Assembly (NCBI GenBank): GCA_023129115.1 | Contig: JAGMCR010000011.1 | Location: forward strand, 32,001-96,000 | Origin: Candidatus Iainarchaeum sp. | GTDB taxonomy: Archaea; B1Sed10-29; WALL01 | Direction: 5' to 3' | Length of the DNA: 64,000 nucleotides | Part shown: in pieces, positions 46,740-64,000 of the stretch | Position numbering within the stretch: the first letter of the stretch is position 1 | How the letters are laid out: each line of letters begins with the position of its first letter | Position numbers and translations under genes: made by a program | The notes under the pieces: generated by a model | What the model was told of the DNA's origin: nothing | Seen by the model: only the letters and a program-made list of their open reading frames with translations | The model's database searches: none

Positions 46740-47911
46740 CCCCCTTTCTTCCTCGGCAACCTTTAGCCGAAGAGCGTTTAAATACTTTTCACTTAACGTG
46801 AAATCATGCAAAGGGCAATCACTACGTTTTGTGAGTATGATGCTGACCTAATTAAAACAATGGAATTGTTCAACAAGGCCTGCCAAGAAGTAATCAACGT
46901 TGGCTGGGAGATAAAGGAATACAACAAAATGGAACTCCATAAGCTCACTTATCGTGCTATTCGCAGGGATTTTCCTTTGCTCCAGAGCAGCTTGGTTGAG
47001 GCTGCGAGGGATGTTGCTTCTGACATGCTTAAAAAAACCAAGTTCGCCAAGAAAGCATCTGCGCGGCAGCGTTAGGCTCAACCTGCGGACGTTCAAACCC
47101 TTCCTCAAAAGCAGCTATGTTTCTGTAAGCACTGTTTCCGGAAGGAAGAAAATTCCCATTAAAATTCCTAATTATTTTAATAAATACAAAAAGTGGCAGA
47201 TCAAAGCAGCTACTCTCAAGTACAAAAATGGGGGTCTATCCTTTGTGTTGATTGCCGAGAAAGAAGCTTCAGAGCCTAAAAAGCCTGAAACCGTGATGGG
47301 GGTTGACCTCGGCGTGAACAACATCGCGGTATGCTCGAATAACACGTTTTTCAATTCCAAGCACCTAAAAAAGGTCAAGGGAAGATACCAATATCTACGC
47401 AGAACGCTTCAGTCCATTGGCACTCGCTCCGCGAAGAGAAAGCTCAAGAAGTTGAGTGGGCGAGAAAGACGGTTCGTGACTGACTTGAACCACTGTATCA
47501 GCAAAGAATTGGTTTCCCTGCCTTTTGATTGCATTGCCTTCGAAAAACTCTGCATCAAGAAAAAGAAGGGCAATGGGAAGCGTTTCAACAAAAAACTTGG
47601 TGGATGGAGCTACGCACAACTCCAAGCATTCACTAGCTACAAAGCAGAAGAACTCGGCAAAACCATTGTTTTCGTGAATCCCAGACACACAAGTCAAGCA
47701 TGTTCTGTTTGTGGCCATAGGCACAAGTCCAACAGAAACGGCGCTGTCTTCCGCTGCAAGTCCTGCAGCTTCGAGCTACACAGTGACTTAAACGCTTCCC
47801 GAAACATCGCCAGCCTCGGCAAGTCCGAGGTTGGTAGGCTGCCCAGTCAACCAGCCAAACGTAACCTCGCAAGAGAGTTACAAGCCCCTATTCCATTAGG
47901 GTGCAGTTGAC
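46740..47911 (+). mobile_element. IS200/IS605-family (IS1341-type, tnpB-only) element; left end approximate
   Basis: Low GC. Left hairpin TCGGC-N8-GCCGA; right end CAAGCCCCTATTCCATTAGGGTGCAGTTGAC; no tnpA in the window. Confidence 0.75.
46806..47910 (+). pseudogene. tnpB: TnpB RNA-guided nuclease split by one +1 frameshift near 47031-47075
   Basis: N-terminal ORF 46806-47075 plus a second frame carrying GVDLG, AFEKL, CSVC/CKSC and SDLNASRNIA. An A7 run lies at 47031-47037. Confidence 0.85.
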
Positions 47912-50900: not shown

Positions 50901-51180
50901 GCGGGCAGCTTGGTGGGTCTCCTTCCACGCAGTCCACACAATTGATGTCCAGGTCCGCGCAGTCGCTTATCCAGCACTGGCCCAGCCCCGCGACATCGAT
51001 TTCCGCGGCGTACGGCTCGTATATCCCGCTGAAGTCGACCGTCACCAGGCCCCCATCGGCGCCGGCGTACAGCGCCTCGTAGTTGGCGCTTATCACGCCT
51101 GCCGGCGCGGTAAAGTCCACTATCAATGCCGCAAACGCACCTCCCATCAGCAGTAACACCACGAGTAATGCCTTGTTCAT
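47896..51180 (-). CDS. Secreted multidomain adhesin Z2 (Ig/Fn3 repeats, DUF2341, LamG), about 1094 aa
   Basis: Signal peptide MNKALLVVLLLMGGAFA; DIRFYDSDG...VWVKVP (DUF2341); FNGMLDEVRVS (LamG). ATGA overlap with the upstream gene. The last codons lie inside the IS right end. Confidence 0.85.
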   Translation of the reverse strand: MNKALLVVLLLMGGAFAALIVDFTAPAGVISANYEALYAGADGGLVTVDFSGIYEPYAAEIDVAGLGQCWISDCADLDINCVDCVEGDPPSCPPECRIHECEQLEPTDAAFTTGPVEWDTIVGNGNAYDTHLLWKSWSSALPAGPWPPSWPAVPPRPYEGERYARIVCNDRAGNPSILIQDSINLDLVDPFATVGHFDGFQDTTTIAVTQAAGDWGVDPSGYAGSVTEVDSAAIGDEDVLGAWGGYTTADTSGTDFNYVGSSCSAYRFRHEASDIAGRGSGLVNSGAITKIDTASPGAPVVSSSTHPNSSQAYASQDPQFNWTKPFSCSGIEKYIHALNANSTYTPQEGTDNVTTATNASYSNISEATWWFHVRPKNHMGKWGNTAHFQINIDVGPPSPDPTTIASVVVNSKSQITVTATVSTDPSGVNYSLWETTGGGSNFTWQASNVFVDMGLAPNTQYCYRAKATDKWGQETAWTTTAVCDYTYAAVPGLVVDCRRSPDRCEVTIIANGNPGGTQYYANNTYGNGTDSGWITSTLYTDTSASPTQICYEAKAQNANGIGTDWSSEVCDTFPNFPVISGQRTIPLHPTFLEDLNCTWVITDADEGDVLKANVTWYRNGGHEPAWDVNEILCTHGKACYTSLAPTAADTAAGEDWDCSITAYDQEGLTDSATASATILNTLTVFYTDGTFDSYAYAPQQWGVFGAAVESTFQGSCGGCNRRVRLEFDNSASAEDLVGFPVMVKLTPSNIEYSLTGPDDIRFYDSDGTTPLPKEIEEWVQGGDSFVWVKVPHIPAGSTSDHIWAYYDCPDTSAEDPAAVWGNGYRGVWHLGEGAADAPDSTGNTNTGTRGGGVTATSGVVGGADNFDGSSGSIDCGAGPTLNVPDTLTVSAWVYTRDVAGYRSIITKGNPHSSGDRMLNYGVQFPSSAKLRLFSYLGGYDFTDSTALFPTNTWAHMAVTFSNGAYAFYINGAPAGSGTYSASTLPISTHPLYIGKQIHATAGEGQFFNGMLDEVRVSGTARSEDWIEATHKSTGGTFITPYAPEDAPALPPGDRYVHYSMVDIDQAKVLHEVWMATDSKWQITAMTVEKASTAP

Positions 51181-51743
51181 CTCATGCACCCCAATTCGCT
51201 TGCGCAGACCAGTATGTTATCTATCCTGATTACGGGAATGTCCCCGCCCCCATTGTCCTTACAATAAAGGTTGAGGTTGTAGCTCCCGTCGAAAAAGTAA
51301 TTCGTGAGCGTGCAGCTCACCTTGGTCTTGGTCGCCCCAGGCTCCTCGACCACGCAGTCCCACTTGGACGCGTCCGTCACCCCCGAGGCGCATTCCGCCA
51401 CGCCGTTCTCCCAGTAAACGTCGAACCCAATCGTGGGCCGGGTATTGTTGTAGAACGTCTTGTTGCTGCAGAAGAGCCCGCCCGGCGTTTCCTCGCACTG
51501 CACGGGCATGCAGTCGCCGTAGCAATTCTCCAGTGTCTCTCCCTCGTCGCAGTACTTGTCGTTGTTGCAGACCGGCACTGCAGTGGGCGAGGGCGTTGGA
51601 GTGGGTGTTGGCACTATGGGTGTTGGGGAGGGGGCCGGAGGCTCTTCCCGCCCCCCCATGATGATGGCTGCCGCTATGACCACGGCGGCTATTCCCGCCA
51701 GCAGTGCCAGCTTTTCCTTTGTCTCCAACTCTTTTTGCCTCAC
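51177..51743 (-). CDS. Small membrane-anchored Cys-rich Ig-like protein Y2 with PT linker
   Basis: Start moved to GTG 51743 (GTGA overlap with the previous stop). TM helix, PTPTP, CNNDKYCDEGET, and paralogy to 53328-53855. Confidence 0.8.
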   Translation of the reverse strand: MRQKELETKEKLALLAGIAAVVIAAAIIMGGREEPPAPSPTPIVPTPTPTPSPTAVPVCNNDKYCDEGETLENCYGDCMPVQCEETPGGLFCSNKTFYNNTRPTIGFDVYWENGVAECASGVTDASKWDCVVEEPGATKTKVSCTLTNYFFDGSYNLNLYCKDNGGGDIPVIRIDNILVCASELGCMR

Positions 51744-53323
51744 GTTGTCGATGTCGCCCAGTTGCCCCAGTTTCCTGCGGTGTCCTGCGCGCGCACTCTC
51801 CAGACCCACTTGCCCTGGCAGAGGACCACGCCAATCATTCCGCTTGGCCCCCCGTACATTCCTACGGGGCAGTCGTGGGTCGCGTAGTTGTTCGTGTCGT
51901 AGATGCTTGTCGGTGCGGACACGTACTGGTCCACGCCGTCGTTGTCCGTGCCTACTGGGTCTGTGACCCATCCGGTGTCCCTCGCGACCTGGAGCTGGTA
52001 CTGGGCCAGGCCCGCGGCCTCGCCTATGCCGCCCTGGTCGCCGTAGTCCGTGGACACGCCCCAGTCGAACGTCGGCAGCCCGGTCGCGTCATACGACACT
52101 TCAATGATTGATGGCGCGGTTGGGTCGGTCTTGTCTATCTTGAACTCCACTGGCGACGAGTACTTGGTGTTGCCTGCGTCGTCCTTTGCCGCTGCGCACA
52201 CCCACGCGTGCGCGGTGATGGGCATGCTCGCCCCGACACTGTAGTCCGCGTACGTGGTTGAGCACACAGGCTCGTTTTCCTGGGCATATACCTTAAACGC
52301 GTACGTCCCGGTGTCGCAGCCGCAGTTGTCAGTGCAGCTTCCTATGGTTGCGGTCGCGTCAATGTTCTGCCAGCTGCCCGGCGCCCCGCCCACTGTCAGG
52401 GTCGACGGCGCGGTCTTGTCGTGCCAGACCTCGGTGCCCGGGTCGTGTGCGTACGCCCACTCGTCCAGCGGCCTTGAGGCGGCGTCCCTCGCGCGGTACC
52501 TGAACTTGTACCACTTGCACTCGGCGGGGAACGTGTACACGCAGTCGGCGCACGTGTCTGTGCATGCCGCCACTTCTGTCCAGCCGTCATACGACCCGCC
52601 GTCAATCTTTTCGTCGACTGCGACCTTGCAGTCGGCGGCCACTCCGCTCGGCGAAACGCCCCAGTCTGCTTCGGTGGTCGAGATTGTGTGGGTCGTGCTG
52701 GTCGTTGTGCCGCCCGCGTAGCTGATTGACTGTGTCGGGTCAATCATGTCCAGGTTTATCGAGTCCTGGAGCTGTGACGCTATGTTGCCTGCCTTGTCCA
52801 CGCACGTGACCCTGACGACGCGCTCGCCCTCCATCGGGCACGGCGGGGCAACGTCTGGCCAGGACGGCGGCCACATAGTCCCGGCGTCGCAGTACCCCGG
52901 GATTTCTGCGTTCGTCCTGAACATCAGGTGCGTTATGTACCCCTCGGTGTCAATGCCCGCCCAGTTGTGTATGGCGCCGAACCTCGCGTCTTCTGGCGCG
53001 ATGGTCTCGCACTGCACGTAGTCACCTGGATATGACAAGAGCGCGCAGTCCTGTATGTAGCACCCGTCCAGCCCGGCCACTTCTATCTGGCCGGCGTAGG
53101 CGTCGGTTATCCCCGTAAAGTCCACCTTGATAGCGCCCAGTACGGGGCTGTCTGTGCCAACCGTGGGGTTGCAGTTCGCAGCATCGATACAGCCGCTGGT
53201 TGTCACCTCTGTGAGTGTGGATGCGTCCAGCCCGACAGGCACGCCAATCGGTATGCTCCAGTCCACTGTAAGGTACGCAGATGCCATCGTGAGCATCAAT
53301 AGAGTGAGAATTACTTGCTTCAT
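51740..53323 (-). CDS. Secreted Ig/Fn3 protein Z1, 527 aa; N-domain resembles Z2 and C-domains resemble the giant adhesin
   Basis: Signal peptide MKQVILTLLMLTMASA; WPPSWP...EGER...QDSINLD; ARDTGWxTDPVGTDNDG...CQGKWVWRVRA. Confidence 0.85.
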   Translation of the reverse strand: MKQVILTLLMLTMASAYLTVDWSIPIGVPVGLDASTLTEVTTSGCIDAANCNPTVGTDSPVLGAIKVDFTGITDAYAGQIEVAGLDGCYIQDCALLSYPGDYVQCETIAPEDARFGAIHNWAGIDTEGYITHLMFRTNAEIPGYCDAGTMWPPSWPDVAPPCPMEGERVVRVTCVDKAGNIASQLQDSINLDMIDPTQSISYAGGTTTSTTHTISTTEADWGVSPSGVAADCKVAVDEKIDGGSYDGWTEVAACTDTCADCVYTFPAECKWYKFRYRARDAASRPLDEWAYAHDPGTEVWHDKTAPSTLTVGGAPGSWQNIDATATIGSCTDNCGCDTGTYAFKVYAQENEPVCSTTYADYSVGASMPITAHAWVCAAAKDDAGNTKYSSPVEFKIDKTDPTAPSIIEVSYDATGLPTFDWGVSTDYGDQGGIGEAAGLAQYQLQVARDTGWVTDPVGTDNDGVDQYVSAPTSIYDTNNYATHDCPVGMYGGPSGMIGVVLCQGKWVWRVRAQDTAGNWGNWATSTT

Positions 53324-53327
53324 TCAA

Positions 53328-53855
53328 TCACCCCTCGTACCACTGGCCGCAGCCGGTGTCGCTCGCGCAGACAAATATCTTGTCGACGGTCTCCCTCGGC
53401 AGCCTGTCGCCGTTGTTGTCCGTGCAGTGCAGGTTCAGCATGTAGGTGCCGTCGTAGAAGTAATTCTGCAGCGTGCACTCCACGTTTGTCTCGGTCGCGC
53501 CCGGCTCTTTCACTACGCAGTCCCACTTGGACGCGTCGGTCAGCCCCGATGAGCATGCCTGTACCCCGGTGGGGCTGGACATCCTGACTATTATGCTTGG
53601 TGTGGTGTCCGTGTAGCTCTCGGACCCGGGCGCCCTCTCTGCGGACAGCGCTCCGGTTATTATGCAGTCGGCGGGGCATGATGCCTTGGTCTCGCCAGGC
53701 TCGCACACTCCGTTGTTGTTGCACGTGCCTCCTGGCGTTACTGGCGCCCGGGGTGTCTCCCCTGGCTGCATGATAAAAAACAAAGCAATCAATATCACTG
53801 CAACCAAGAGCGCCGCTATGTAGAGCGGCTGGATTTCGGTTTTTTTCTTTGCCAT
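53328..53855 (-). CDS. Small membrane-anchored Cys-rich Ig-like protein Y1
   Basis: Basic N-terminus plus TM helix; CNNNGVCEPGET; TDASKWDCVV motif shared with Y2. Confidence 0.85.
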   Translation of the reverse strand: MAKKKTEIQPLYIAALLVAVILIALFFIMQPGETPRAPVTPGGTCNNNGVCEPGETKASCPADCIITGALSAERAPGSESYTDTTPSIIVRMSSPTGVQACSSGLTDASKWDCVVKEPGATETNVECTLQNYFYDGTYMLNLHCTDNNGDRLPRETVDKIFVCASDTGCGQWYEG

Positions 53856-53885
53856 TTTTTTTGCCTCAGTTTAAGTTGGTTAATG

Positions 53886-56800
53886 CTAAATCTCCTGCGC
53901 CCACGGCCCTGGGGCGAGCGCGTTGTCCCTCGCCCTCACTCTCCAGACCCACTTGCCCTGGCACAGGCACGCGTCCATGCCGTCCGGCCCGCCGTACGGC
54001 CCCACCGGGCACCAGTGCGTCGTGCTTGGGGTGTACGAGCAAGTCCCGGCGCTGCAGTACGTCCCCTTGGCAATCCATCCCGTGTCGAAGCCGTCGTTGT
54101 CCGTGCCCACTGGGTCCGTGGCCCACCCCGTGTCCCTCGCGACCTCGAGCTCGTAGTCCTTGATGCCGGAGCCGCCCGTGTCACTTGCCTCTGTCCACTG
54201 GAACGTGGGGCACTCCACGTTGGTGTACTGCACTGCCGTCAGCACAGGGGCGGGCGGCGCGGCTTGGTCCACCTTGAACTCGATGCCGGCCGCCTGGTAC
54301 CCAATGTTTCCGAGCGTGTCCTTTGCCGCGGCGCACACCCACACGTGGCTCGTTATGTCCGACGGCGACGGCAGGGTGTACGAGCCGTAGTCCTGCGGGC
54401 ACGCGCCTGCAGCGCCCGTAGTATATATCTTATAGGTCCCAGTGTCGCATCCGGCCGTGCCCACGTCGCTGCATGTGACTGTTGCCGGCGAGGTGGCCTC
54501 GGTCCAGTCTGCCGGCGCGCCGTCCGTGCTCACCGGCGACGGTGCCGAGTTGTCAATGTCCACGACGTCGTTGTTGGTCTTGTACCCGACGGACCAGCCG
54601 TACCCGTCCCACGCGCGGCACCTGAGGTCCACGCCGGTCTGTGTTGCCACGAGGCTGACGTCCCAGTTGCACGAGCCGCTGCTGCATCCGCCAATGTCGT
54701 GCCATCCGCCACTGTAGTTCGCTTCTATCTGGTACGTGATGGAGTCGCCGTCCGCGTCAACCGCACTCGCGCACGTAATCGCCACCAGCGGGCTGTCCCC
54801 GCCCCTGGTGACCACACTGGTCGGCGTGAGCGTGGTCGGGTTCGGCGGCAGAGTGTTGCACCATGCCTTTGCCTCGGCGGTCTCCTGGGCAGCGCCGCTC
54901 GCGGCTATGTTGAACGTCCCGCTGCACGTGATGCACGTGTACCCGCCCTCTGGCGAGACGCTCCACGACACGCCGTTGAACGCGATTGGGTCAGTGTTCG
55001 TGAAGTCCACTGTCTCTGTCCGGTACTGCTGGTGTGTCTCGTACTGCGAGCAGGTGCCGTTGGGGCCCCACCCGTTTTCGACTAGGGTTATGGTGCCGGC
55101 CTCGCTCCACTTGAACGTGTACTGGTCGTTCCCGCCCGCGGTGGGGCTGACTGTCTTCGCGCCGCAGTCGACGGCGGCGTACGAGTCCCCGGTCTGGCTT
55201 TCCCCGACGCCGTCCCAGTACGCGCCGTCGTCGCACGCGTCCTGCAGCGAGGCGCTCGCGGCCTCTGCCGCGGTGTTGCTCACGGTAACAGTGCACTGCT
55301 CGTACGCGGTGCCGCCCGCCACTGTAGTGCTCCCGGTGTCCTGCTCGGGCACGCAGTCGCTCGCGGTGAGCGCATTGTCCCACGTGTAGCACAGCGACTC
55401 GTATTCAGTCGTGTGGTACGGCGCGTGTGACTCCCACACCGCGGGGTTTGCGGTCTGGGCGGTGTAGTCTTTTATCGCGGTGTCTATGTCCGGGTCGTAC
55501 TCGGGCGCTGCCACGGCGTACGAGAGCCCGCTTATTCCGTCGTAGTGGAGCGTTTGCCTGCGCGTGAACGACGTGCCGTCGCCGTCGTTTAGGAATATGT
55601 CGACGCTCCTGTCAACGTGGTTCTCGTACGAGACCACGTAGTCCTGGTCGCCGTCGTGGTCGAAGTCAAAGGCCCCGCCCCCGCCGTGGTCGTCGGTGTC
55701 GAACACAACTCCCTGGTACGAGAACGTCGCCGGGTCGCCGCCCATGTTCTTGAACAGGGAGTGCGCGCCGCCGCCTCCCTCGCTGCGGATGAAGTCTGGC
55801 AGGCCGTCGCCCGTGAAGTCCGCCGCGGCGAACGAGTACGAGTCCCACGTGTTCGCGTCGCCGTCCGCGACCACCGGGGCCTCGAAGAGCCCGGTGCCGA
55901 GCCCGTACCAGATAACCGTGCCGCCGTTGCCGCTTATCGCGAAGTCCATGTTGCCGTCCATGTCAAAGTCTGCGGCGTCGCACTCGCGGATGCTGCCACT
56001 GGGCTTGCCCTGTATCGCCTCGTACGTGAACCCTCCTGTGCCGTCCCCCAGGAAGCGGTAGACCTGTGAAATGACGTTTGGCGCTGCGATGAAGTCGTAG
56101 TTCCCGTCGTTGTTGAAGTCCGCTGCCGCGGTGCACATCATGTAGTTGTTCGTCCACCCGCTCACAGTGGCTATCGCCACTTCGGTGAACGACTCGTACC
56201 CTGTCTTGCGGAGCATTGAGATTGCCCCATAGTCATTGATTATCACGTCGTAGTCGCCGTCGTTGTCGAAGTCGGCCATGGTGCTGCTCCTCGGCATCCG
56301 GTTCCCGTAGTCGCCGAGGTAGACCAGCTGCGAGAACGACCCGTCGCCGTACGAGTGGACCATGTACGCGCGCTCGTAGTCATCTATCACGAAGATGTAC
56401 TCTTCACTGGCTTCTGCTGTGCCCGAGCACACCTGCCCGTCGTAAAGCGTCCAGCTGTCCACGCCGGCGTCAAGGCCCTTGCTCTCGTCGTAGTACCAGC
56501 CGGCCGAGCGCACGTCGCCGCCGACGCTGTTGTCAATCGTTATGGTCTCGCGGTACTCCAGGTCTGCCGCGCCCTCTTCCTCGATTGTTGGAGTGCCGGA
56601 CTGTGTGGGGCTGCCCCAGCTGGTGTCCGCCCTTATCCCGTAGTTGTGCACGCCGAGGGCGCCCGTCATGCCACTGTGGTCTGTGCAGCTTACCCGGTAG
56701 TCGACGTCGCCCTTGCTGAACGCGTTCGGGCCCCAGTTCACTGTGCAGGACGTCTCGGTGTCGCAGTCGAGATGCGCCGAGTTTCCAATGTTGCCCTCGT

Positions 56801-59800
56801 GCGCGCCCTGCTGGAGGAGCTCTGCGTAGTCCATTGAGTCGTCAATGAAGTTCCCTGACACTGTGTCCTGGTCAATGTCGTAGCACATGTCCGAGATGGT
56901 CCACGTCCCCGCGTTCTCAAGCATTTTGGCTGCCTTGTTGGTTGCCGAGGGTATTGGGGTGTGGCCCCATTCAGTGTCGAACGAGAGCGTGAGCGAGCCC
57001 TCGTTGCCCGCCACGTCCCGGCACTTTATGTAGTAGGTGTACGCGTTCTCGTCGAACAGCATCATCCTGTGGTAATGCGATGTCGCGTACTGTGTGTCGA
57101 GTGGCATCATGCTTGCCCACGCCTCGCTCTCGGCGGAGTACCTGCACAGCGCCGGCTCGTCCGTGCCCACTGTCCACATGTACTCGTACCACTCGTTGAT
57201 GTCCGGCGTCGGGTCCGCTATGACCGCGGCCTCGGCTTCCGTGACCACCGGCGCATCAGTGTCTATGCCGAAGTCGTACGCCACCTCTGCGTTGCCGCCG
57301 CCGGCCTTCGCGAACACCGTGCCGCCGTCGTCGGTGAGCGCGATGTAGACGCGGTACGGCCCGGTCGTCTCTGCCCCGGTGTTCCATGCGCCCGCGTTCG
57401 CCCATTCCACGCCCAGGTCGAGGCTGCTGCCCGCGCCGACCAGGATGGGCTCGTTCGAGACAGTGGCCACGTCCACCCAGCTGCCGGTGTTCTTCTGGAC
57501 CTTCATGAGGAGCTTGCCGTCAACCGCGCGCGACCCGTCGTTCATTACTTCGCTCTTGCCCGCCATTGCCTCGGCCTCGCCCCACGTGACTCTTGGGGCG
57601 CCCACCTGGAAGGCCTGCGGGTCGGGCTCGCCCGCTATGAGCAGGCCGTCGGAGTACGCGCCGCCGCCCTGGTCCCCGCCAAGGTCGCCGCTCACCCACT
57701 CCTGTGCGCCCGCCGTGTCGAAGACATAGACCAAATCATTGTTCCACGCGGCGACCAGCTCCACAGCGCCGTCGTGGTCGACGTCGCCGAACATTGGCTG
57801 CATGGAGTACGAGCCCTTGTCAATCGGGCCGAGCTCAAGGTTGAACGTGCCGGTGTCCTCGACGTTGTACACGCGCACAGCACCACCGTACTCGCCAATG
57901 GCCACTTCGGTCCTGCCGTCCTGGTCCCAGTCCATTATGGAGCCCGTGCCGTGGTTGCTGCCCTGGTCCGGCCCAAGCCCGGTGTTCGTCATCCCGTCCT
58001 TGCTCCACTCGTAGACGCGCGGCTGGTCAGTGTCCCCGAAGACCATCTGGGCCCACTCGTTGTCGAACACGTACCCCGCTGCGCCGCTTGTGCCGCTGTT
58101 GTGTATGTCCCTCCACTTCTCTTCCTGCAGCCCGACGCCGTTGTAGCTGATTACGCTGAGGCCCTCGTCGTACCACTGGGCGCTCACTATTTCGGGCGTG
58201 CCGTCCATGTCCACGTCGCCGCATACTGTGCACGCCTTGTTGTCGATGCGCTTCTTGGTGCCGTACGCCTGGCCAGTGCTCACGCGGGCGTACTCCTCTG
58301 CGTAGCCGCTGCCTGTCCAGCCCCAGACCTCAATGCGGTCCTGGCCGTAGCCGGGTATGATTATTTCATCCAAGCCGTCCATGTCAATGTCACACGCTGT
58401 TACCTGCAGCGTGTCGTAGATAACTGTGACAAAGCTCCCGAGCAACTCGTACCCACTGCCGGTCCAGTGGTACACATACTTGGTGGTCCCAGTGTACGGT
58501 GCTATGATGAGCTCCGGCGTCCCGTCGCCGTTGGTGTCGGCTATGGCGAGCGCGGGGTAGTCTGCTGCCGCACTGGTCAGGATGTTGGTGACCACTTTGG
58601 TGACGCCGTTTATTACGTTGACCTCGCCCGTGTGCCCCGCCGTTATTATGTCCCTCACGCCGTCGCCGTTCAGGTCTGTCTCGGGGTAGAAGAACGTCTG
58701 CGAGAGCGGGATTTGCGTTGGCGCGCCCCTGTCCACTCCGTCGAACACGAGCCAAAAGTACCTTGTCGCGTCGGCGGTCGTGGCGCCGTCGAGCACAAAG
58801 TCAATCCTGCCGGCGGCCTTCGTGAGCGCGTTGTAGTCGCTGCCCAGGTGGTAGAACCGCGACGCCTTCTCGCCGATTACCTGGCCGCTGGAACTCACTT
58901 CCACAACGCGGTAGCAGTTGTCGCACATGGACGTGCCTGCGCCGCCCGCGCCGTCGAAGAGCTTGGTGAAGTCCACGAGCAGGCTCATCTTGTAGTCCGT
59001 GCGCGCGTACTGGTTGTTGTCCACGGTGAACGGCGCCTTGTACAGCCACTGCTGGCCCAGTATCGTGTCACTGGCCGGGCCGGTGAGGTACACGCCCGTG
59101 TTTCCGCCGTGCACCTGCCTCACTGTCCCCGCAGTCATTGTCACGTCGACAGTGCCGATGGTGACTTGGCCGGGGGAGTAGTCCTTGGCAGTGCCGCCCT
59201 CGCCGTCGTTCGCCTCGCACCAGATGTAGTACGAGCCCGTGGCCCACGCGGAGACGTCGCATGACTCTGTGCCGTCGTTCGTGCTGCCGGTGAAGCACGT
59301 GTACGTCTGGTCCCAGCCCGCGGCGTCCGCGTCGCCGTAGCAGCTGATTGTCGGGCTGGTCTCGATGTCGCTCGCCGTCCAGTTCACTGTGTACGACGCG
59401 TCTGCGCTCGCGCCCCCGCCCGGCGGCGCGGTGACCTCGATGGTGGGGAGGTCGTTCACTGACGCGACATTGATTGTGAACGAGTCGTCCGCCGTGGCGT
59501 AAGTGTCGCTCGCCCTGATTGTGCATGACGCCGCGCCGAACCAGTTGTCGGCGGGCCTTATCCACAGCTCCCTGCCGTTGGTGCCGTTTGTCTTGCAGTC
59601 CACCTGCGCTGCGTTTTCTGTCAGCACGGTGAATGTGAGCGTGTCGCCGTCGCAGTCAGTGGCCTGGCCGCCGCCAGTCACGCTTAGGTCAGAGTCAATC
59701 CTCATCCACCCATCGTCCTCGTTCTTGTTGATTGGGTCGGTTATTGCCTGCGTCCACACAGGCACCTGGTTGGCTATCACGCAGTCCACTGTGCTGGACC

Positions 59801-62800
59801 ACCCTGTCTCGTCGTTCGGGGTGTCGTCGTTCCGCGCCTTTATTTTGTAGCTGTACGTGGAGCGCGGTGCCGTGAGCCCGGTGTCCGTGAATGTTGGCGT
59901 GGTCTGGCTCGTGGAGCGCACCCACCCGGAGTTGCTCTCGCCGCCGTTGCTGGTGGTGGGCTCTATGTAGTACTCCGTGGCCACGGTTGTGCCCATGTCC
60001 GGGGTGAGCGTGCACGAGTACGTCCCCGCGCTGCAGCCCTGGCTTGTGTAGGACAAAGTTGGCGCCACTGCGTGCGTGTGCTTGCACGCCTGCGAGCCAT
60101 AGCCGCCGATGTTTCCGCCGTTGTCCCGGGCGCGCACGCGGTAGCAGAACTCTGTGTTCGGCGAGAGCCCGCCGTCGACATAGCCGCTCGCGACCCACCC
60201 ACTGTCCGTGCCGCCGTCATCGATGCCGACTGTGTTGTCGGCCTGGTAGTCATCACTGTCAGTGCCGGTGGTGACTGTGGTCTTGCTGATTTTGTGGAGC
60301 TCGCAGTCGTCCCACCATGTCTGGCCCGTGGCTGTCCCCAGCGTGTACCTTAGGAGGCGCACGTCGCCCGACGCGCCGGACCTGAAGACAGTGTATATCC
60401 TCGTCCAGTCCGTTGTGCCGCTCGTGCTGGTGAAGTCCAGGGTCGTGAACTGGTGCTCGGGCCATATCCTCGTATACCCGGCGGTTAGCGCTGTCTTGAC
60501 CATGCACTCCGCGATGTATTCCGTGTTCGCCTCGACGTCAGTGCCTATGATGAAGTCCGAGCCGGCGTACCTTGTGCTCGCGCTCGTGTCCTGCCTAAGT
60601 GAATAGTCGCCAGTGTACGCGACAGAGCTGTCTACTGTGTACCCGTTGCTGACGACGCTCCCGGCCCTGAAGTAGCACGGGGTTGCCGTCTTTTCACATC
60701 CCCCGTCGTAAAACATGTTCTCATCGTTCCCCGCGTCGTCGAACGCCTTGATGTAGTGGTACCATGTGTCCCCGGTGTCAGTGACAGAAGCCCAGTTCAC
60801 GGCCATGCTGCCTGTGCCGACGCCCGTGAAGGTCGGCGTGGCGCCGTTTGGCGGGATTGTCGTGTCGCTCGCCTCGCTGTCCCCGTACTCGTCGTCTGCG
60901 ATGAGCGGTGTTACTTTGATGTCGTCAAATTCTGCGGCGGTATACAATGTCAGCAGGCCAATGTACCCTGTGGACATTGTGCTGTCCGTTAGATCCGCGA
61001 TGAGCACCCCATCCACATAGAACTTGAGGCTGCTTCCCACCACTTTTGCCTTCAGCTCGTGCCATTCATTCATGGTGAGGCTCGTTGCGCTTGACGTGAA
61101 TATGTACCCGGCATCCTGGTAGTCATAAACTCTCCACGTGTTGTCGTCTTGGTGGTGGAAGAACCCGTAGTACGTGTTAACGTCCTGCGCCCGCAGTATC
61201 AGCCCAACGTTTGGATACGCATGTGTGATTGATGTCGGCTTTACTTTGGCGGAAAACACGTAGTCAGTCCATCCCGAGCTGCCGGCAGTCAGCTTTTTCC
61301 ATCCTCCGCTACTTGCGTCGGACTGGGTTAGTTTTTCCGAGCTCACGGCCCAGGTGCCGCCGGTCACGGTCCATGTGGGGTTACTTGTATAGTCCCCATC
61401 AGTGAACTCGTCCAATAGCCCACCCACAGGCTCGTAAGCCCCGGTGGCAGCCGCGTTCCTGTACAGGCCGTGCGTGATAAGCCCCGAGTTCATGTCGTTC
61501 CGTATGTCGTCTTCACTGAGCGGGGTGCTGTAGACGCGGAACTCGTCCACAATGCCGAACTGCTGTGTTCCAGTGTGGTGGTTGCCAACGGTGTAAACGT
61601 CGGAAGTCGACTTCGCGGGCGAAATCCCTACCTGCTCGCCGTCAATATAAAATGTCGTGGTTGTGCCTGTCCCCACGGCGGCGATATGGTACCAGCCCGC
61701 CACCAAGCCGTCTGTGTCGAACCCACTGGAGTGGAAGCCACCGCCATTGTTTATGTAGGTCCCGAGCAGGCCAGTGGACTTTTGGACTATTATCTGGTGG
61801 TCTTCAGCCGTGCCCCTCGCCAGCGTGTTCCAGTTCGCGGCCGCGGCAAATGGGTACATGGCCCAGGCACTTATGGTCCAGTCGGCACCCAAATCCACTA
61901 CTGGGGTGAGCAGTACCTTGTCGGCTTCAGCAGCGAAGTCCAGTGCCCCGCCCGTGTACGGGCCGGTGTTGCCTGTTGCCACAGTCGCGCCGGTTAGTGC
62001 GCCGCTGACCCCTTGCGGGCCCCAGTCCTCTGCAACCCCGCCCTCGAAAGGCATGTACAGCACGAGCCCCGCGTCTCCCTGGTCCCACGTTAAGTCCACC
62101 TCGTTCGCCACGAGGTCCGCCGTTGCGGTCAGGTCCGGCGTCGCTGGCGCAGTTCTGTCGATTGGCCCGATGGTCGCGGACGAGCCGCTGTAGCCGGTCG
62201 AGTCACCACCGCCGTTTGCCGCCATGACCGAGAACGTGTAGGCTGCGTTGTCCGGCAGGTTCAAGTCAATCCCGCTCGCCCCGCCCCACGCGGAATACAT
62301 CTGGGCGACTTGGCCCGCGCCGAGCGTGCCGTCCGCCTGCAGGAAGTCCCCGCTGTTGTCCTCGCGAATCGTGTATGTCACAGACGCACCATTAGTGCTG
62401 GGGTCTATCACCAGGGTTATTCCAGTGAACTCGCTGTTCAGCGGCGCGTTAAGGTCCGTTGCAGTCGGCGCCCCTGGCGTGGCTGGCCAGGTCCACGTGT
62501 TTTGTGTCGATGAGTCGGCTGTGGTGAACCCGAACGAGTCCCTCGCCTTCACTGTGTAAGTGTACTGCTCGCCCGGCGTGAGCCCGGTGTCTGTGTACGT
62601 GTTGCTCGTGCCCCAGGTCCTGTCGTGGCACCCGCCTGTCACGCACGTGAAGTAGTACTCCACGCTGCCGGGCGCGCACCCGACGTCAGAGACTGCGGTG
62701 GCCGCGATGTCAATCGAAGTGGTCTCGCCGCCCGGCGAGGGCTCGATGGTGCTTATGGTCGGCTGGTTCGGGGGCGCGCGGTCGATTTCTATGGGGCCAA

Positions 62801-64000
62801 TGGTGTGCTCGGTCTCGGTGTTGCTTAGGGTGTCTATTGATTTGTACTCAAACCACCACGTGCACGCATTGTCCGCGGCGCATGGGATTGCGACCGGGCC
62901 GGTGTAAGTCGTGGTCGCACTGCACGTGCTACTTGCGAGGCAGTATTTTATCTCGTCAACGCCCGCCGCGCCCGTGTCCACCGCGCTGAGCACGGCGTTG
63001 CTCGGCTCGGTCGACCGGCACTCTGCAACCAGCCCGCTGGTCTCGGTTGTTGTCGGCGCGGTGTTGTCGATGTTGATTACGTTGAGGTTCGTAATCCAGT
63101 CGCTGGTCTGGGCAACACTGTCGAACGCCCTGCACCTGAGGTCAACACCGGTTTGTGTCGAGTATCCAGTGACGTCCCAGTAGTACTCGCATTCTCCAAT
63201 GCCTTCACACCAGTCTGGATAAGGGTTCCCAACGGCAGCAGGGACTGGGCCATACCATCCAGTGCCCTCGCCAGTGTCCCAGTACGCCTCGAGCTCGTAG
63301 CAGAACTCGCCCGTCATCTCGCCCTCGCTGCACCCGAAGGCGCCGTCCGCGTCGGTCGAGCCACTGCACACAATGGGTACCATGCCCAGTTCGTATGGCC
63401 CTCCGTACGTGGTCGTTGTGTCTGGCGTGAGGGTCGTCGGCGTGGTCGGCGGGGTGTTGCACGCGGCCGGGTCGTTGTACGCGTTGTCGATTTCGCGGAA
63501 GTACAGCTTGTTGTCGTACGTCCGCCCGTAAATCGAGCCTATGTACCCCCCGGAGCACGCGGGCGCGCGCTTCTCAATGCCCTGGTTCCCACTGTTCCCG
63601 TACGAGTTGAGTATGACCTGGGCGCCGAGCCCCGTGGACGCGTCGTACCGCTTGTAGTACACGTCTCCAGCGGTCCCACTCCTCCCAGAGTAGGTGTAGT
63701 ACATGTTGCCCGCGGCGTCGCCGCCGACGTTCCCCCAGTTCGAGTAAACGGTAGAAACCGTCCCCGTGGTCCACGAGCTCGAGGTGAGCGCGCCTGTGTA
63801 CCCGTAGTAATCATAGTTGCTCACGCCCTGGAACGCCATGTGGAGCTTGTTGTTCGCGGCGACCACGACACCGCATGACTGCACGTTGCTGGTGGCGCCG
63901 GCGAGTGTGTCGTACCCAGCGGTCGACCCGTCTATCCTCTTCCATGACGCGCCGTTGTCGCTGGACTGCGTGTAGACACAGCGCCTCAGTGAAGTCGTGG
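53886..64000 (-). CDS. Giant adhesin, >3370 aa, 5' end outside the window: BNR/Asp-box, Fn3/Ig, LamG, DUF1080-like, CBM4/9-like and two FG-GAP/VCBS propellers
   Basis: The frame stays open from 63884 to 64000 (...YTQSSDNGASWKR...). Multiple DxDxDG/ADFD motifs; FGIVDEFRVY; WTDYVFSAKV...FDDIKVT; WWDDCEL. Confidence 0.9.
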   Translation of the reverse strand, partial: TTSLRRCVYTQSSDNGASWKRIDGSTAGYDTLAGATSNVQSCGVVVAANNKLHMAFQGVSNYDYYGYTGALTSSSWTTGTVSTVYSNWGNVGGDAAGNMYYTYSGRSGTAGDVYYKRYDASTGLGAQVILNSYGNSGNQGIEKRAPACSGGYIGSIYGRTYDNKLYFREIDNAYNDPAACNTPPTTPTTLTPDTTTTYGGPYELGMVPIVCSGSTDADGAFGCSEGEMTGEFCYELEAYWDTGEGTGWYGPVPAAVGNPYPDWCEGIGECEYYWDVTGYSTQTGVDLRCRAFDSVAQTSDWITNLNVINIDNTAPTTTETSGLVAECRSTEPSNAVLSAVDTGAAGVDEIKYCLASSTCSATTTYTGPVAIPCAADNACTWWFEYKSIDTLSNTETEHTIGPIEIDRAPPNQPTISTIEPSPGGETTSIDIAATAVSDVGCAPGSVEYYFTCVTGGCHDRTWGTSNTYTDTGLTPGEQYTYTVKARDSFGFTTADSSTQNTWTWPATPGAPTATDLNAPLNSEFTGITLVIDPSTNGASVTYTIREDNSGDFLQADGTLGAGQVAQMYSAWGGASGIDLNLPDNAAYTFSVMAANGGGDSTGYSGSSATIGPIDRTAPATPDLTATADLVANEVDLTWDQGDAGLVLYMPFEGGVAEDWGPQGVSGALTGATVATGNTGPYTGGALDFAAEADKVLLTPVVDLGADWTISAWAMYPFAAAANWNTLARGTAEDHQIIVQKSTGLLGTYINNGGGFHSSGFDTDGLVAGWYHIAAVGTGTTTTFYIDGEQVGISPAKSTSDVYTVGNHHTGTQQFGIVDEFRVYSTPLSEDDIRNDMNSGLITHGLYRNAAATGAYEPVGGLLDEFTDGDYTSNPTWTVTGGTWAVSSEKLTQSDASSGGWKKLTAGSSGWTDYVFSAKVKPTSITHAYPNVGLILRAQDVNTYYGFFHHQDDNTWRVYDYQDAGYIFTSSATSLTMNEWHELKAKVVGSSLKFYVDGVLIADLTDSTMSTGYIGLLTLYTAAEFDDIKVTPLIADDEYGDSEASDTTIPPNGATPTFTGVGTGSMAVNWASVTDTGDTWYHYIKAFDDAGNDENMFYDGGCEKTATPCYFRAGSVVSNGYTVDSSVAYTGDYSLRQDTSASTRYAGSDFIIGTDVEANTEYIAECMVKTALTAGYTRIWPEHQFTTLDFTSTSGTTDWTRIYTVFRSGASGDVRLLRYTLGTATGQTWWDDCELHKISKTTVTTGTDSDDYQADNTVGIDDGGTDSGWVASGYVDGGLSPNTEFCYRVRARDNGGNIGGYGSQACKHTHAVAPTLSYTSQGCSAGTYSCTLTPDMGTTVATEYYIEPTTSNGGESNSGWVRSTSQTTPTFTDTGLTAPRSTYSYKIKARNDDTPNDETGWSSTVDCVIANQVPVWTQAITDPINKNEDDGWMRIDSDLSVTGGGQATDCDGDTLTFTVLTENAAQVDCKTNGTNGRELWIRPADNWFGAASCTIRASDTYATADDSFTINVASVNDLPTIEVTAPPGGGASADASYTVNWTASDIETSPTISCYGDADAAGWDQTYTCFTGSTNDGTESCDVSAWATGSYYIWCEANDGEGGTAKDYSPGQVTIGTVDVTMTAGTVRQVHGGNTGVYLTGPASDTILGQQWLYKAPFTVDNNQYARTDYKMSLLVDFTKLFDGAGGAGTSMCDNCYRVVEVSSSGQVIGEKASRFYHLGSDYNALTKAAGRIDFVLDGATTADATRYFWLVFDGVDRGAPTQIPLSQTFFYPETDLNGDGVRDIITAGHTGEVNVINGVTKVVTNILTSAAADYPALAIADTNGDGTPELIIAPYTGTTKYVYHWTGSGYELLGSFVTVIYDTLQVTACDIDMDGLDEIIIPGYGQDRIEVWGWTGSGYAEEYARVSTGQAYGTKKRIDNKACTVCGDVDMDGTPEIVSAQWYDEGLSVISYNGVGLQEEKWRDIHNSGTSGAAGYVFDNEWAQMVFGDTDQPRVYEWSKDGMTNTGLGPDQGSNHGTGSIMDWDQDGRTEVAIGEYGGAVRVYNVEDTGTFNLELGPIDKGSYSMQPMFGDVDHDGAVELVAAWNNDLVYVFDTAGAQEWVSGDLGGDQGGGAYSDGLLIAGEPDPQAFQVGAPRVTWGEAEAMAGKSEVMNDGSRAVDGKLLMKVQKNTGSWVDVATVSNEPILVGAGSSLDLGVEWANAGAWNTGAETTGPYRVYIALTDDGGTVFAKAGGGNAEVAYDFGIDTDAPVVTEAEAAVIADPTPDINEWYEYMWTVGTDEPALCRYSAESEAWASMMPLDTQYATSHYHRMMLFDENAYTYYIKCRDVAGNEGSLTLSFDTEWGHTPIPSATNKAAKMLENAGTWTISDMCYDIDQDTVSGNFIDDSMDYAELLQQGAHEGNIGNSAHLDCDTETSCTVNWGPNAFSKGDVDYRVSCTDHSGMTGALGVHNYGIRADTSWGSPTQSGTPTIEEEGAADLEYRETITIDNSVGGDVRSAGWYYDESKGLDAGVDSWTLYDGQVCSGTAEASEEYIFVIDDYERAYMVHSYGDGSFSQLVYLGDYGNRMPRSSTMADFDNDGDYDVIINDYGAISMLRKTGYESFTEVAIATVSGWTNNYMMCTAAADFNNDGNYDFIAAPNVISQVYRFLGDGTGGFTYEAIQGKPSGSIRECDAADFDMDGNMDFAISGNGGTVIWYGLGTGLFEAPVVADGDANTWDSYSFAAADFTGDGLPDFIRSEGGGGAHSLFKNMGGDPATFSYQGVVFDTDDHGGGGAFDFDHDGDQDYVVSYENHVDRSVDIFLNDGDGTSFTRRQTLHYDGISGLSYAVAAPEYDPDIDTAIKDYTAQTANPAVWESHAPYHTTEYESLCYTWDNALTASDCVPEQDTGSTTVAGGTAYEQCTVTVSNTAAEAASASLQDACDDGAYWDGVGESQTGDSYAAVDCGAKTVSPTAGGNDQYTFKWSEAGTITLVENGWGPNGTCSQYETHQQYRTETVDFTNTDPIAFNGVSWSVSPEGGYTCITCSGTFNIAASGAAQETAEAKAWCNTLPPNPTTLTPTSVVTRGGDSPLVAITCASAVDADGDSITYQIEANYSGGWHDIGGCSSGSCNWDVSLVATQTGVDLRCRAWDGYGWSVGYKTNNDVVDIDNSAPSPVSTDGAPADWTEATSPATVTCSDVGTAGCDTGTYKIYTTGAAGACPQDYGSYTLPSPSDITSHVWVCAAAKDTLGNIGYQAAGIEFKVDQAAPPAPVLTAVQYTNVECPTFQWTEASDTGGSGIKDYELEVARDTGWATDPVGTDNDGFDTGWIAKGTYCSAGTCSYTPSTTHWCPVGPYGGPDGMDACLCQGKWVWRVRARDNALAPGPWAQEI

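Follow-up and report, generated by a model that had tools for sequence, protein, structure and literature searches.

Divided Fn3-like strands at the junctions of secreted adhesin genes in an archaeal operon: possible donor-strand assembly of large surface proteins

In chaperone-usher (type 1/P) and type V pili, an incomplete Ig-like fold is completed by a strand of the next subunit; in type V pili this strand is C-terminal, and proteolytic priming is required. In a number of archaeal filaments, namely Sulfolobus threads (Saci_0406), Pyrobaculum bundling pili, Pyrodictium cannulae and the haloarchaeal tat-fimbriae (TafA/C/E/F), the fold of a neighbour is proposed or shown to be completed by an N-terminal strand freed at signal-peptide removal. 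For the threads and the tafi this strand is described as following the removed signal peptide, and the tafi model, as presented in these accounts, includes a LamG tip protein carrying a donor strand only, with no acceptor (PMC9715654, PMC11821415), and a membrane protein at the opposite end. Strand complementation is likewise described as the means by which PilY1/PilC adhesins are retained at the tips of type IV pili (PMC12918778), a very large adhesin being attached via one short terminal beta-strand.

The operon described here would share the principle of the pili and, as a proposal drawn from sequence, the freed N-terminal strand of the archaeal filaments, whereas the proteins involved differ. 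The filament subunits are small single-domain pilins, which form long homopolymers and whose donor strands measure about 10 residues or more, while here we find multidomain adhesins of 527 to 3,596 aa, two to three or more modules, and a putative donor limited to the final 4-5 G-strand residues of an Fn3-like domain. Like those filaments, and in contrast to chaperone-usher and type V pili, the system lacks a periplasmic chaperone, an usher and an outer membrane; the host is an archaeon, and neither a PapD-like chaperone or usher nor any other protein defining these pili was detected with Pfam and NCBIfam among the five operon and ten neighbouring proteins. There is no sequence relation to the archaeal donor-strand filaments, none of whose Pfam families matched the operon proteins. 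Membership in the tat-fimbriae was considered and rejected, the NCBIfam TafC model reaching 29 bits, where the cut-off is 410, and this in the LamG region of Z2 only, and the signal peptides having no RR motif. In the PilY1 case, as described, the adhesin gives its C-terminal strand to a minor pilin, whereas here the C-terminal domain is short of a strand, which would be donated by a different adhesin from its N-terminus; the likeness of the pilin-like genes here to a PilY1-like tip arrangement is one of gene neighbourhood.

The window, i.e. the whole 64,000-nucleotide stretch of DNA analysed, comes from an archaeon with a very small genome and carries on its minus strand five tightly coupled genes in the order giant, Y1, Z1, Y2 and Z2, with starts and stops that overlap or lie only a few bases apart. 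The secreted giant (53886..64000, 5' end beyond the window) contains FG-GAP, LamG and Ig/Fn3-like domains (Pfam FG-GAP_3, 1.8e-36; Laminin_G_3, 9.9e-15); the open frame has 3,698 codons, the stored protein (P0006) 3,596 aa, and the N-terminal signal peptide is visible in L026 and P0006. Its C-terminus reads ...WVWRVRARDNALAPGPWAQEI, then TAG, with another in-frame stop two codons on. Z1 (51740-53323, 527 aa) is a both-ended module possessing a signal peptide, an N domain, Ig-like domains and an X domain. It starts with MKQVILTLLMLTMASA, followed at the putative cleavage site by YLTVDWSIP, and ends ...WVWRVRAQDTAGNWGNWATSTT; residues 221-524 show 45% identity to the C-terminus of the giant, and residues 37-284 show 41% to the N-terminus of Z2. 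The latter protein (47896-51180, ~1,094 aa) possesses a signal peptide, an N domain, Ig/Fn3-like domains, DUF2341 (3e-10) and LamG (Laminin_G_3, 3.1e-28) but no X domain; it begins with MNKALLVVLLLMGGAFA, then ALIVDFTAP. The two intervening genes code for paralogues with 45% identity: Y1 (53328-53855, 175 aa), which has a membrane helix at its N-terminus, a four-Cys mini-motif and a small ectodomain of Ig-like type, and Y2 (51177-51743, 183-188 aa), of a second subtype and ending ...GCMR. The GTG start of Y2 overlaps the Z1 stop (an alternative TTG lies 15 nt downstream), and the ATG of Z2 overlaps the Y2 stop. On inspection of their sequences, the giant (including its C-terminus), Z1 and Z2 have no membrane anchor of their own. 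Upstream, on the same strand and contiguous with the locus, are type IV filament genes coding for a T2SSE ATPase, two T2SSF platform proteins and pilin-like proteins, in an order that is the same in a second species (G002) as in the genome studied (G000). TnpB-type elements are found on the flanks of and within the locus in G000, the assembly of which comprises 19 contigs and is 88.6% complete.

The X domains, which terminate the giant (53889..54266, minus strand) and Z1 (51743..52132, minus strand), represent a rare C-terminal Fn3-like domain of 126-130 residues. They show a beta-sandwich, a W-x-V-R-A-x-D F strand and an AGN-type F-G loop, all traits of the Fn3 type, and that of the giant has a long insert. 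An X profile search returned 905 proteins at E<=0.001, mostly Fn3-like multi-repeat proteins, and Foldseek with the Z1 model retrieved tandem Fn3 structures (E ~1e-8); in the Pfam scan, fn3 stayed below its own threshold on X. Based upon alignments, and for the giant also upon a spacing baseline and the profile search, X of the giant ends 12 residues past the F-strand Asp (NALAPGPWAQEI-stop) and, by alignment, that of Z1 ends 13 residues past it (TAGNWGNWATSTT-stop). The baseline comprised 1,087 F-strand motifs in non-family proteins gathered by the searches so far, 606 with a linker motif, 457 without one (by regex) and 24 near a C-terminus. In 449 of these 606 the linker Asp stood at a spacing of 16 from the F-strand Asp, with 72 cases at 15, 20 at 17 and 25 at 18. 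The five X tails measure 12, 13, 12, 12 and 13 residues, and the C-terminal Fn3-like domains of other proteins extend 14-23 residues past the Asp in 22 of 24 cases. About half a strand rather than a whole one is missing from X, both G-strand core positions being absent, and the sequence comparison supports a cut lying in register within the canonical G strand.

The missing piece is present at the start of the next secreted protein. Once the signal peptides are removed, Z1 begins with YLTVDWSIP (53249..53275, minus strand; score 4.5, top 2.5e-4 of genome 9-mers) and Z2 with ALIVDFTAP (51103..51129, minus strand; score 11.8, top 2e-5), each a putative donor half-strand plus linker in which YLTV-D and ALIV-D supply the four residues by which X is short. 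When the X tail is added to the four residues ahead of the Asp of the next mature protein, the three junctions with known gene order give 16, 17 and 16; for giant-Z1 the sum is 16 and for Z1-Z2 it is 17, against a dominant spacing of 16 in related domains, although the exact sum of 16-17 hangs on the cleavage sites, since these were read by eye with the small-x-small rule, predictor-free. The scores derive from a 9-mer profile built on 441 canonical strand-plus-linker instances from 113 proteins, in which the five mature N-terminal 9-mers rank from the top 2.5e-4 to below 1e-6 of the 962,884 9-mers in the six-frame ORFs of the genome. A crude signal-peptide-like start was recognised in 74 of 154 collected proteins, and the linker motif follows it directly in only four, three of them family members and the fourth a doubtful match, which is the single case among about 70 other secreted proteins rich in Fn3/Ig domains. 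The original prediction had these proteins ending one strand short and the next secreted protein starting with that strand, and the observation held up against the spacing, 9-mer profile and specificity controls; the internal linkers that it quoted (FKVDQAAP, FKIDKTDP, INIDNTAP and INIDVGPP) were all located in the sequence.

It may be asked whether there is any intermolecular complementation at all. The motif h-x-V-D-x-x-x-P could belong to the fold of the N domain itself or serve secretion or processing, with X slightly short yet complete, and the proteins would then act on their own, as adhesins that are secreted or loosely bound and belong to the adjacent type IV filament locus. Archaeal loci of that kind commonly hold large adhesin-like proteins, according to one account (PMC13705601), and two other proteins have C-terminal Fn3-like domains that stop just 14 residues past the Asp. 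In the AlphaFold2 model of mature Z1, X is folded alone, in the absence of a donor strand, with a confident F-G hairpin (pLDDT 87 for blocks 491-510). Complete folding of X by itself had been named in advance as evidence against donor-strand assembly, and the hairpin touches on this without amounting to it; the F strand spans nine residues (490-498) and the last strand only four (507-510). The same model places the N-terminal strand nowhere and leaves the N domain unmodelled (residues 1-185, pLDDT ~30). Against this explanation, the X tails are shorter than 22 of the 24 other C-terminal examples and devoid of both core positions, and the motif behind the signal peptide is nearly limited to the family. 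Furthermore, homology with every internal boundary of these proteins makes h-x-h-D part of the domain before it rather than of the one after, in agreement with the Z1 model, where the EFK strand completes the preceding Ig domain. We regard the absence of complementation as unlikely.

In five of five proteins of the close X family, X stands at the C-terminus and breaks off at one and the same point; in all five proteins carrying an N domain, the domain lies at the N-terminus directly after the signal peptide, and the start motif h-x-V-D-x-x-x-P stands right behind the peptide, these family members being homologues and hence no independent trials. The V, D and P of the motif are invariant in the alignment although the N domains share just 30-48% identity. 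Since the examples are few and homologous, the motif could be conserved for a different reason, for instance because it packs against the N domain. In G002 the giant ends ...PWAEEE-stop and is followed by a Y gene and then by a protein starting with MKYAALFALLLMVSTAFG, after which comes LLIVDWSPP. The cassette of X-stop, Y and signal peptide-strand-N, for which a search of other genomes had been suggested, is kept there, and the species has a protein of 4,101 codons with the same N-terminal domain and C-terminal end as Z2. Both-ended modules occur elsewhere in P0026 (44% identical to Z1) and P0011 (1,570 aa). The longest contig listed for these two and for the Y homologues P0164 and P0165 is 31,248 bp, and gene order is known from G000 and G002 alone. 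No fused X-N protein was present among the collected database matches.

These relatives bear on the notion that the giant gene is decaying or was recently broken, by insertion of Y or by an assembly error, so that the strand halves would be relics. The TnpB-type elements that flank and interrupt the locus and the incomplete state of the assembly could be cited for it. However, an identical split with intact signal peptides recurs in two genomes and two JGI proteins at 30-72% identity, so the split must be old and maintained; Y is conserved, and its two subtypes are old; and starts and stops are tightly coupled, with a double stop behind the giant. We consider such a breakage very improbable.

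A Y gene is found at every junction seen, twice in G000 and once in G002, and the pairing of Y with each junction that had been proposed is thereby borne out in two genomes. The AlphaFold2 model of Y1 displays a helix at residues 11-28 and six strands in residues 87-162 (pLDDT up to 90). No Pfam or NCBIfam family matched Y1, and Foldseek with the Y model gave generic Ig-like matches alone (best E 7e-3). Two conserved subtypes, which co-vary, can be told apart among the X tails, the Y proteins and the N-termini, AQEI/AEEE tails occurring with Y1-type and xTSTT tails with Y2-type proteins. An ordered heteromer therefore fits better than a homopolymer, and the suggestion that Z1 polymerises with itself is unsupported. 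Alternatively, the true binding partner may be Y: acting as a membrane anchor or as an assembly factor, it would use its small Ig-like ectodomain either to take up the N-terminal strand of the protein encoded next or to cap the X that precedes it, and each adhesin would be tethered singly, with no chain formed. Its presence at each junction, its membrane helix, the anchor-less state of the giant, Z1 and Z2 and the co-variation of subtypes would all suit such a role, and in the tafi model, as described, the membrane protein TafF accepts a donor strand (PMC11821415). The match in length and register, on the other hand, points to the G strand of X and to nothing in Y, and the six Y strands may, judging from the model, already form a complete small sandwich. 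This alternative appears to us quite unlikely.

Our preferred reading is that strand complementation joins the secreted modules of the operon into one large surface adhesin outside the cell, which on sequence grounds we rate a serious possibility, a little short of probable. The acceptor would be the X domain that closes the giant and Z1. In this Fn3-like sandwich the final G strand breaks off midway, such that the first half of the F strand would be unpaired and two core positions vacant. Cleavage of the signal peptide would expose the missing piece, h-L-x-V-D, followed by the linker x-x-x-P and the protein's own first domain. A donor of 4-5 residues is far shorter than known donor strands and should therefore bind weakly by itself, and its insertion would probably be strengthened by contacts between the X and N domains and by the membrane-anchored Y at the junction. 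The chain would run from the giant through Z1 to Z2 as a LamG end piece, a position assigned to Z2 because it is devoid of X and one resembling that of the modelled tat-fimbrial tip protein, while the chain would be anchored to the cell through Y. The original prediction of a head-to-tail fibre finds partial support, at the sequence and comparative level, in the register of the cut, the presence of the missing h-x-V-D on the next protein, the conserved arrangement and the recurrence of both-ended modules; physical insertion of the strand, which is plausible, the order of assembly and any role of Y we infer.

In its fullest form, the proposal is that the modules of an adhesin of >5,000 residues are exported separately by a DPANN-type archaeon and click together via a nicked Fn3 domain, 4-5 G-strand residues being carried by the next module. 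The membrane-anchored Ig-like Y encoded at each junction would be an assembly chaperone and/or anchor, and this would amount to chaperone-assisted, heteromeric archaeal donor-strand assembly for giant proteins with a lineage-dependent number of modules; we think it possible, if somewhat unlikely, that all of this applies. If true, donor-strand assembly would be extended from small pilins to giant multidomain proteins, and the junction would represent a very small natural split-Fn3 tag-and-catcher pair. If the junctions do lock the proteins together, this would explain how enormous adhesins devoid of a membrane anchor can be displayed by ultra-small archaea that live attached to other cells, and how a cell may export very long surface proteins piece by piece and join them afterwards in a set order.

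The giant, Y1, Z1, Y2 and Z2 genes form a single operon on the minus strand of the window, within an archaeal assembly (G000) of 1.25 Mb in 19 contigs that is 88.6% complete. Giant extends from 53886 to beyond the window (open frame of 3,698 codons; protein P0006 of 3,596 aa, N-terminus MKRFLLVATALLMLVSVAAA) and contains FG-GAP, LamG and 3-keto-disaccharide-hydrolase-like lectin domains in Pfam. Y1 (53328–53855, 175 aa) starts 30 nt after the giant stop, and Z1 (51740–53323, 527 aa) 4 nt after that of Y1. Y2 (51177–51743, 183–188 aa) possesses a GTG start overlapping the Z1 stop, with a TTG 15 nt downstream, while the ATG of Z2 (47896–51180, about 1,094 aa) overlaps the Y2 stop. Z2 ends in DUF2341 and LamG domains, the Ig-like Pfam matches of Z1 are all sub-threshold, and neither Y1 nor Y2, the small membrane-anchored proteins encoded at the two junctions, matched a Pfam family. 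An NCBIfam scan of the operon proteins revealed nothing exceeding the cut-offs. A TnpB/Cas12f-like (OrfB_IS605) gene at 46954–47910 (+) converges on Z2, overlapping its last 15 bases.

Z1 is a mosaic, residues 37–284 resembling the Z2 N-terminus (41% identity) and residues 221–524 the giant C-terminus (45% identity). We named the shared Fn3-like C-terminal domain (126–130 aa) X and the shared N-terminal domain (about 185 aa) N. The original prediction held that giant and Z1 stop just before the last strand of X, and that the next secreted protein opens with that strand; all of the sequence strings that it quoted are present in the window, and the observation of a split strand is confirmed and strengthened. 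By homology, h-x-h-D closes the preceding domain at every internal boundary of these proteins, and therefore an N-terminus opening with h-x-h-D is an orphan piece.

The spacing baseline consisted of 1,087 W-x-V-R-A-x-D-type F-strand motifs in non-family proteins gathered by the searches to that point. By regular expression, 606 of these have a linker (h-x-h-D-x(1-3)-P) no more than 32 residues on and 457 do not, the remaining 24 lying within 25 residues of the C-terminus. Between the F-strand Asp and the linker Asp there are 16 residues in 449 of the 606, 15 in 72, 17 in 20 and 18 in 25. X ends 12 residues after the F-strand Asp in giant, in the giant of a second genome (G002) and in P0011, and 13 residues after it in Z1 and P0026; the mature N-termini provide four residues ahead of their Asp (YLTV, ALIV, LLIV). 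At the three junctions with readable gene order, the X tail and the next N-terminus sum to 16, 17 and 16. The C-terminal Fn3-like domains of other proteins retain 14–23 residues in 22 of 24 cases; of the two shorter ones, one resembles a fragment and the other a false motif.

Canonical instances, 441 from 113 proteins, were compiled into a position profile with the consensus DNAGNWGAWSSVRSFTVDTTPPS. Compared with positions 13–21 of this profile, the five mature N-terminal 9-mers reach scores of 4.5 to 20.4, placing them in the top 2.5e-4 to <1e-6 of the 962,884 9-mers of G000; the instances were chosen with the linker expression, so that the profile is partly fixed by construction, the genome null still being a fair comparison, and the five examples, being homologous, do not count as independent trials. 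Signal-peptide cleavage sites were assigned by eye. The linker motif stands at the mature start of four of 74 proteins with a crude signal-peptide-like start, namely three family members and one doubtful case, a count which misses Z2 (entered with a V start). The motif behind the signal peptide is no general feature of secreted Ig/Fn3 proteins. Genome-wide, the regular expression matched five of 10,055 six-frame ORFs: Z1, Z2, a further ORF on contig C9 that plausibly encodes a secreted protein, and two improbable candidates. The C9 plus-strand ORF (o4239, 474 codons) looks secreted, starts MKRLLLLCLLLASVFAASLGTTFEIDLGDP and has an h-x-h-D-x-x-x-P-like motif a few residues past the signal peptide; it gave no match to the N, X or Y profiles.

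The X profile gave 905 matches at E<=0.001 among 1.84 billion representative proteins, nearly all of them multi-repeat Fn3-like proteins aligned over the F-strand region only. Close full-length matches comprise five distinct proteins, giant, Z1, P0007 (the G002 giant) and the JGI proteins P0011 (1,570 aa) and P0026 (546 aa), with X at the C-terminus of every one of them and ending at the identical point. N likewise occurs in five proteins (Z1, Z2, a 4,101-codon protein of G002, P0011 and P0026), each time directly behind the signal peptide. No fusion of X followed by N in a single chain was present among the matches listed (best 150 of 905). Two proteins matched a Z1 query among 5.8 billion, and the N-domain profile returned three true members and three partial Ig matches. 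Within the class, N matched in two of 31 genomes; Z1 matched in three of 41 relative genomes, the third via a common Ig domain only, and a scan of genome contigs for relatives matched G002 alone. Inside G000 the X, N and Y profiles match at this locus only. For the N domain, ESM Atlas features pointed only weakly (0.84) to bacterial Ig-like clusters.

G002, a genome of the same genus, has a giant, a Y and an N-starting protein in that order, the kind of X-Y-Z cassette for which the original prediction suggested a search. The giant (3,168 aa) ends ...RDASQNEGPWAEEE, Y (186 aa) begins 4 nt past it, and the 4,101-codon protein, directly after Y, starts MKYAALFALLLMVSTAFG followed by LLIVDWSPP and has a Z2-like end without X. 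The longest contig given for P0011 (tail AQEI), P0026 (N-terminus YLVVDWTPP, tail TTSTT), P0164 (Y1-type) and P0165 (Y2-type) is the same, at 31,248 bp, and in a third organism these proteins probably make up an equivalent chain. Its predicted order is P0011, a Y1-type gene, P0026, a Y2-type gene and a Z2-like gene, preceded by another X-ended gene and a Y ahead of P0011; metagenome and viral scans for this contig returned only an unrelated 1.1-kb fragment (L027). Pairwise identities are 30–48% for N, 45–72% for X and 35–53% between the Y subtypes, which marks both the split and the Z1/Y2 unit as old. A recent tandem duplication as the origin of Z1 was rejected, since P0026 and the Y2-type P0165 show an old Z1/Y2 unit. 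That the arrangement is simply a broken gene is highly improbable. Read-through of the giant stop (TAG) into Y1 was rejected on account of a second in-frame stop two codons on, and joining by RNA splicing or in an intein-like manner is considered unlikely, given the conservation of the signal peptides and of Y as a membrane protein.

Y proteins are few, eight among 5.8 billion, and fall into two subtypes: Y1-type proteins end ...GCG(Q/R)W... and follow AQEI/AEEE X tails, and Y2-type proteins end ...GCMR and follow an ATSTT tail. Self-polymerisation of Z1, raised as a possibility in the original prediction, is neither supported nor contradicted; the conserved subtypes argue for specific pairs. 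An AlphaFold2 model of Y1 (8-row alignment) has a membrane helix (11–28), a disordered Cys-rich linker and a six-stranded Ig-like sandwich (87–162, pLDDT up to 90), for which Foldseek returned generic Ig-like matches, none at E<=0.001. An alternative reading, which we consider doubtful, has Y itself as the acceptor or the anchor. Large proteins encoded by five further related genomes show weak matches (E 1e-5 to 0.009) to a four-Cys motif, C-x5-C-x3-E-x4-C-x2-DC, located at 53672–53723 in Y1 and in the equivalent stretch of Y2; the motif is apparently a small extracellular module that is widespread across this group.

Mature Z1 was modelled with AlphaFold2 (6-row alignment; mean pLDDT 55), and Foldseek matched the model to tandem Fn3 structures. 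The Ig-like domains and X reach pLDDT 75–89. In X, the F strand spans 490–498 and the last strand only 507–510 (A-T-S-T), with pLDDT 87 across 491–510, and K-W-V-W, the first half of the F strand, is therefore without a G-strand partner. Residues 1–185, the N domain, have a pLDDT of about 30, which is uninformative on packing of the N-terminal strand. An alternative is that this strand belongs to the fold of N itself and that X is sufficiently complete; we regard this as unlikely. At the x position the five N-termini have hydrophobic residues (T, I, I, V, I), and in four of five the Asp is followed by an aromatic one; internal linkers have polar residues at both places. The pattern of the N-termini would fit a strand with both faces buried.

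We tentatively favour, at somewhat under an even chance, the reading that X and the N-terminus of the next protein are two halves of one G strand which re-associate outside the cell, a mechanism that is plausible and specific. Rejoined strands would yield an ordered heteromer of giant, Z1 and Z2, with the LamG end of Z2 distal and one Y at each junction; the G002 version would comprise giant and the Z2-like protein, and that of the organism with the JGI contig three or more modules.

In G000 as in G002, the adhesin operon follows a type IV filament gene set encoded on its own strand. In G000 (L026, G000:C3:95500-103500, minus strand) this set lies directly upstream of giant, with the same order in the G002 locus L032; its products are a type II/IV secretion ATPase of the T2SSE type, two T2SSF platform proteins and three pilin-like proteins of 158, 177 and 416 aa whose N-terminal segments are hydrophobic, along with a small lipoprotein-like protein. 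The last was rejected as a Y homologue (hhalign probability 1.1%). The G000 ATPase gene (L026:7141-8001, minus) contains an intein that includes a LAGLIDADG homing-endonuclease domain (Pfam LAGLIDADG_3, Intein_splicing), and a second TnpB/Cas12f-like (OrfB_IS605) gene (L026:5244-7103, +) occupies the opposite strand between the ATPase gene and those of the platform proteins. Downstream of its Z2-like gene, G002 (L031) encodes two membrane proteins and another ATPase, this one with a 4Fe-4S ferredoxin domain at its N-terminus.

Among archaeal filaments, bundling pili and cannulae are established or modelled cases of donor-strand assembly following removal of the signal peptide. The same is described for archaeal threads (PMC9715654), and a report on tafi models donor-strand assembly with a LamG tip protein, limited to a donor strand, and an acceptor anchored in the membrane (PMC11821415). 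PilY1/PilC are described as attached to type IV pilus tips through one short strand (PMC12918778), and large Ig-rich adhesin-like proteins are reported from archaeal type IV filament loci (PMC13705601). A keyword search of the open-access literature, which is not proof of absence, found no account of giant adhesins linked through a split terminal Fn3 strand. If true, the split-strand mechanism would be a new form of donor-strand assembly.
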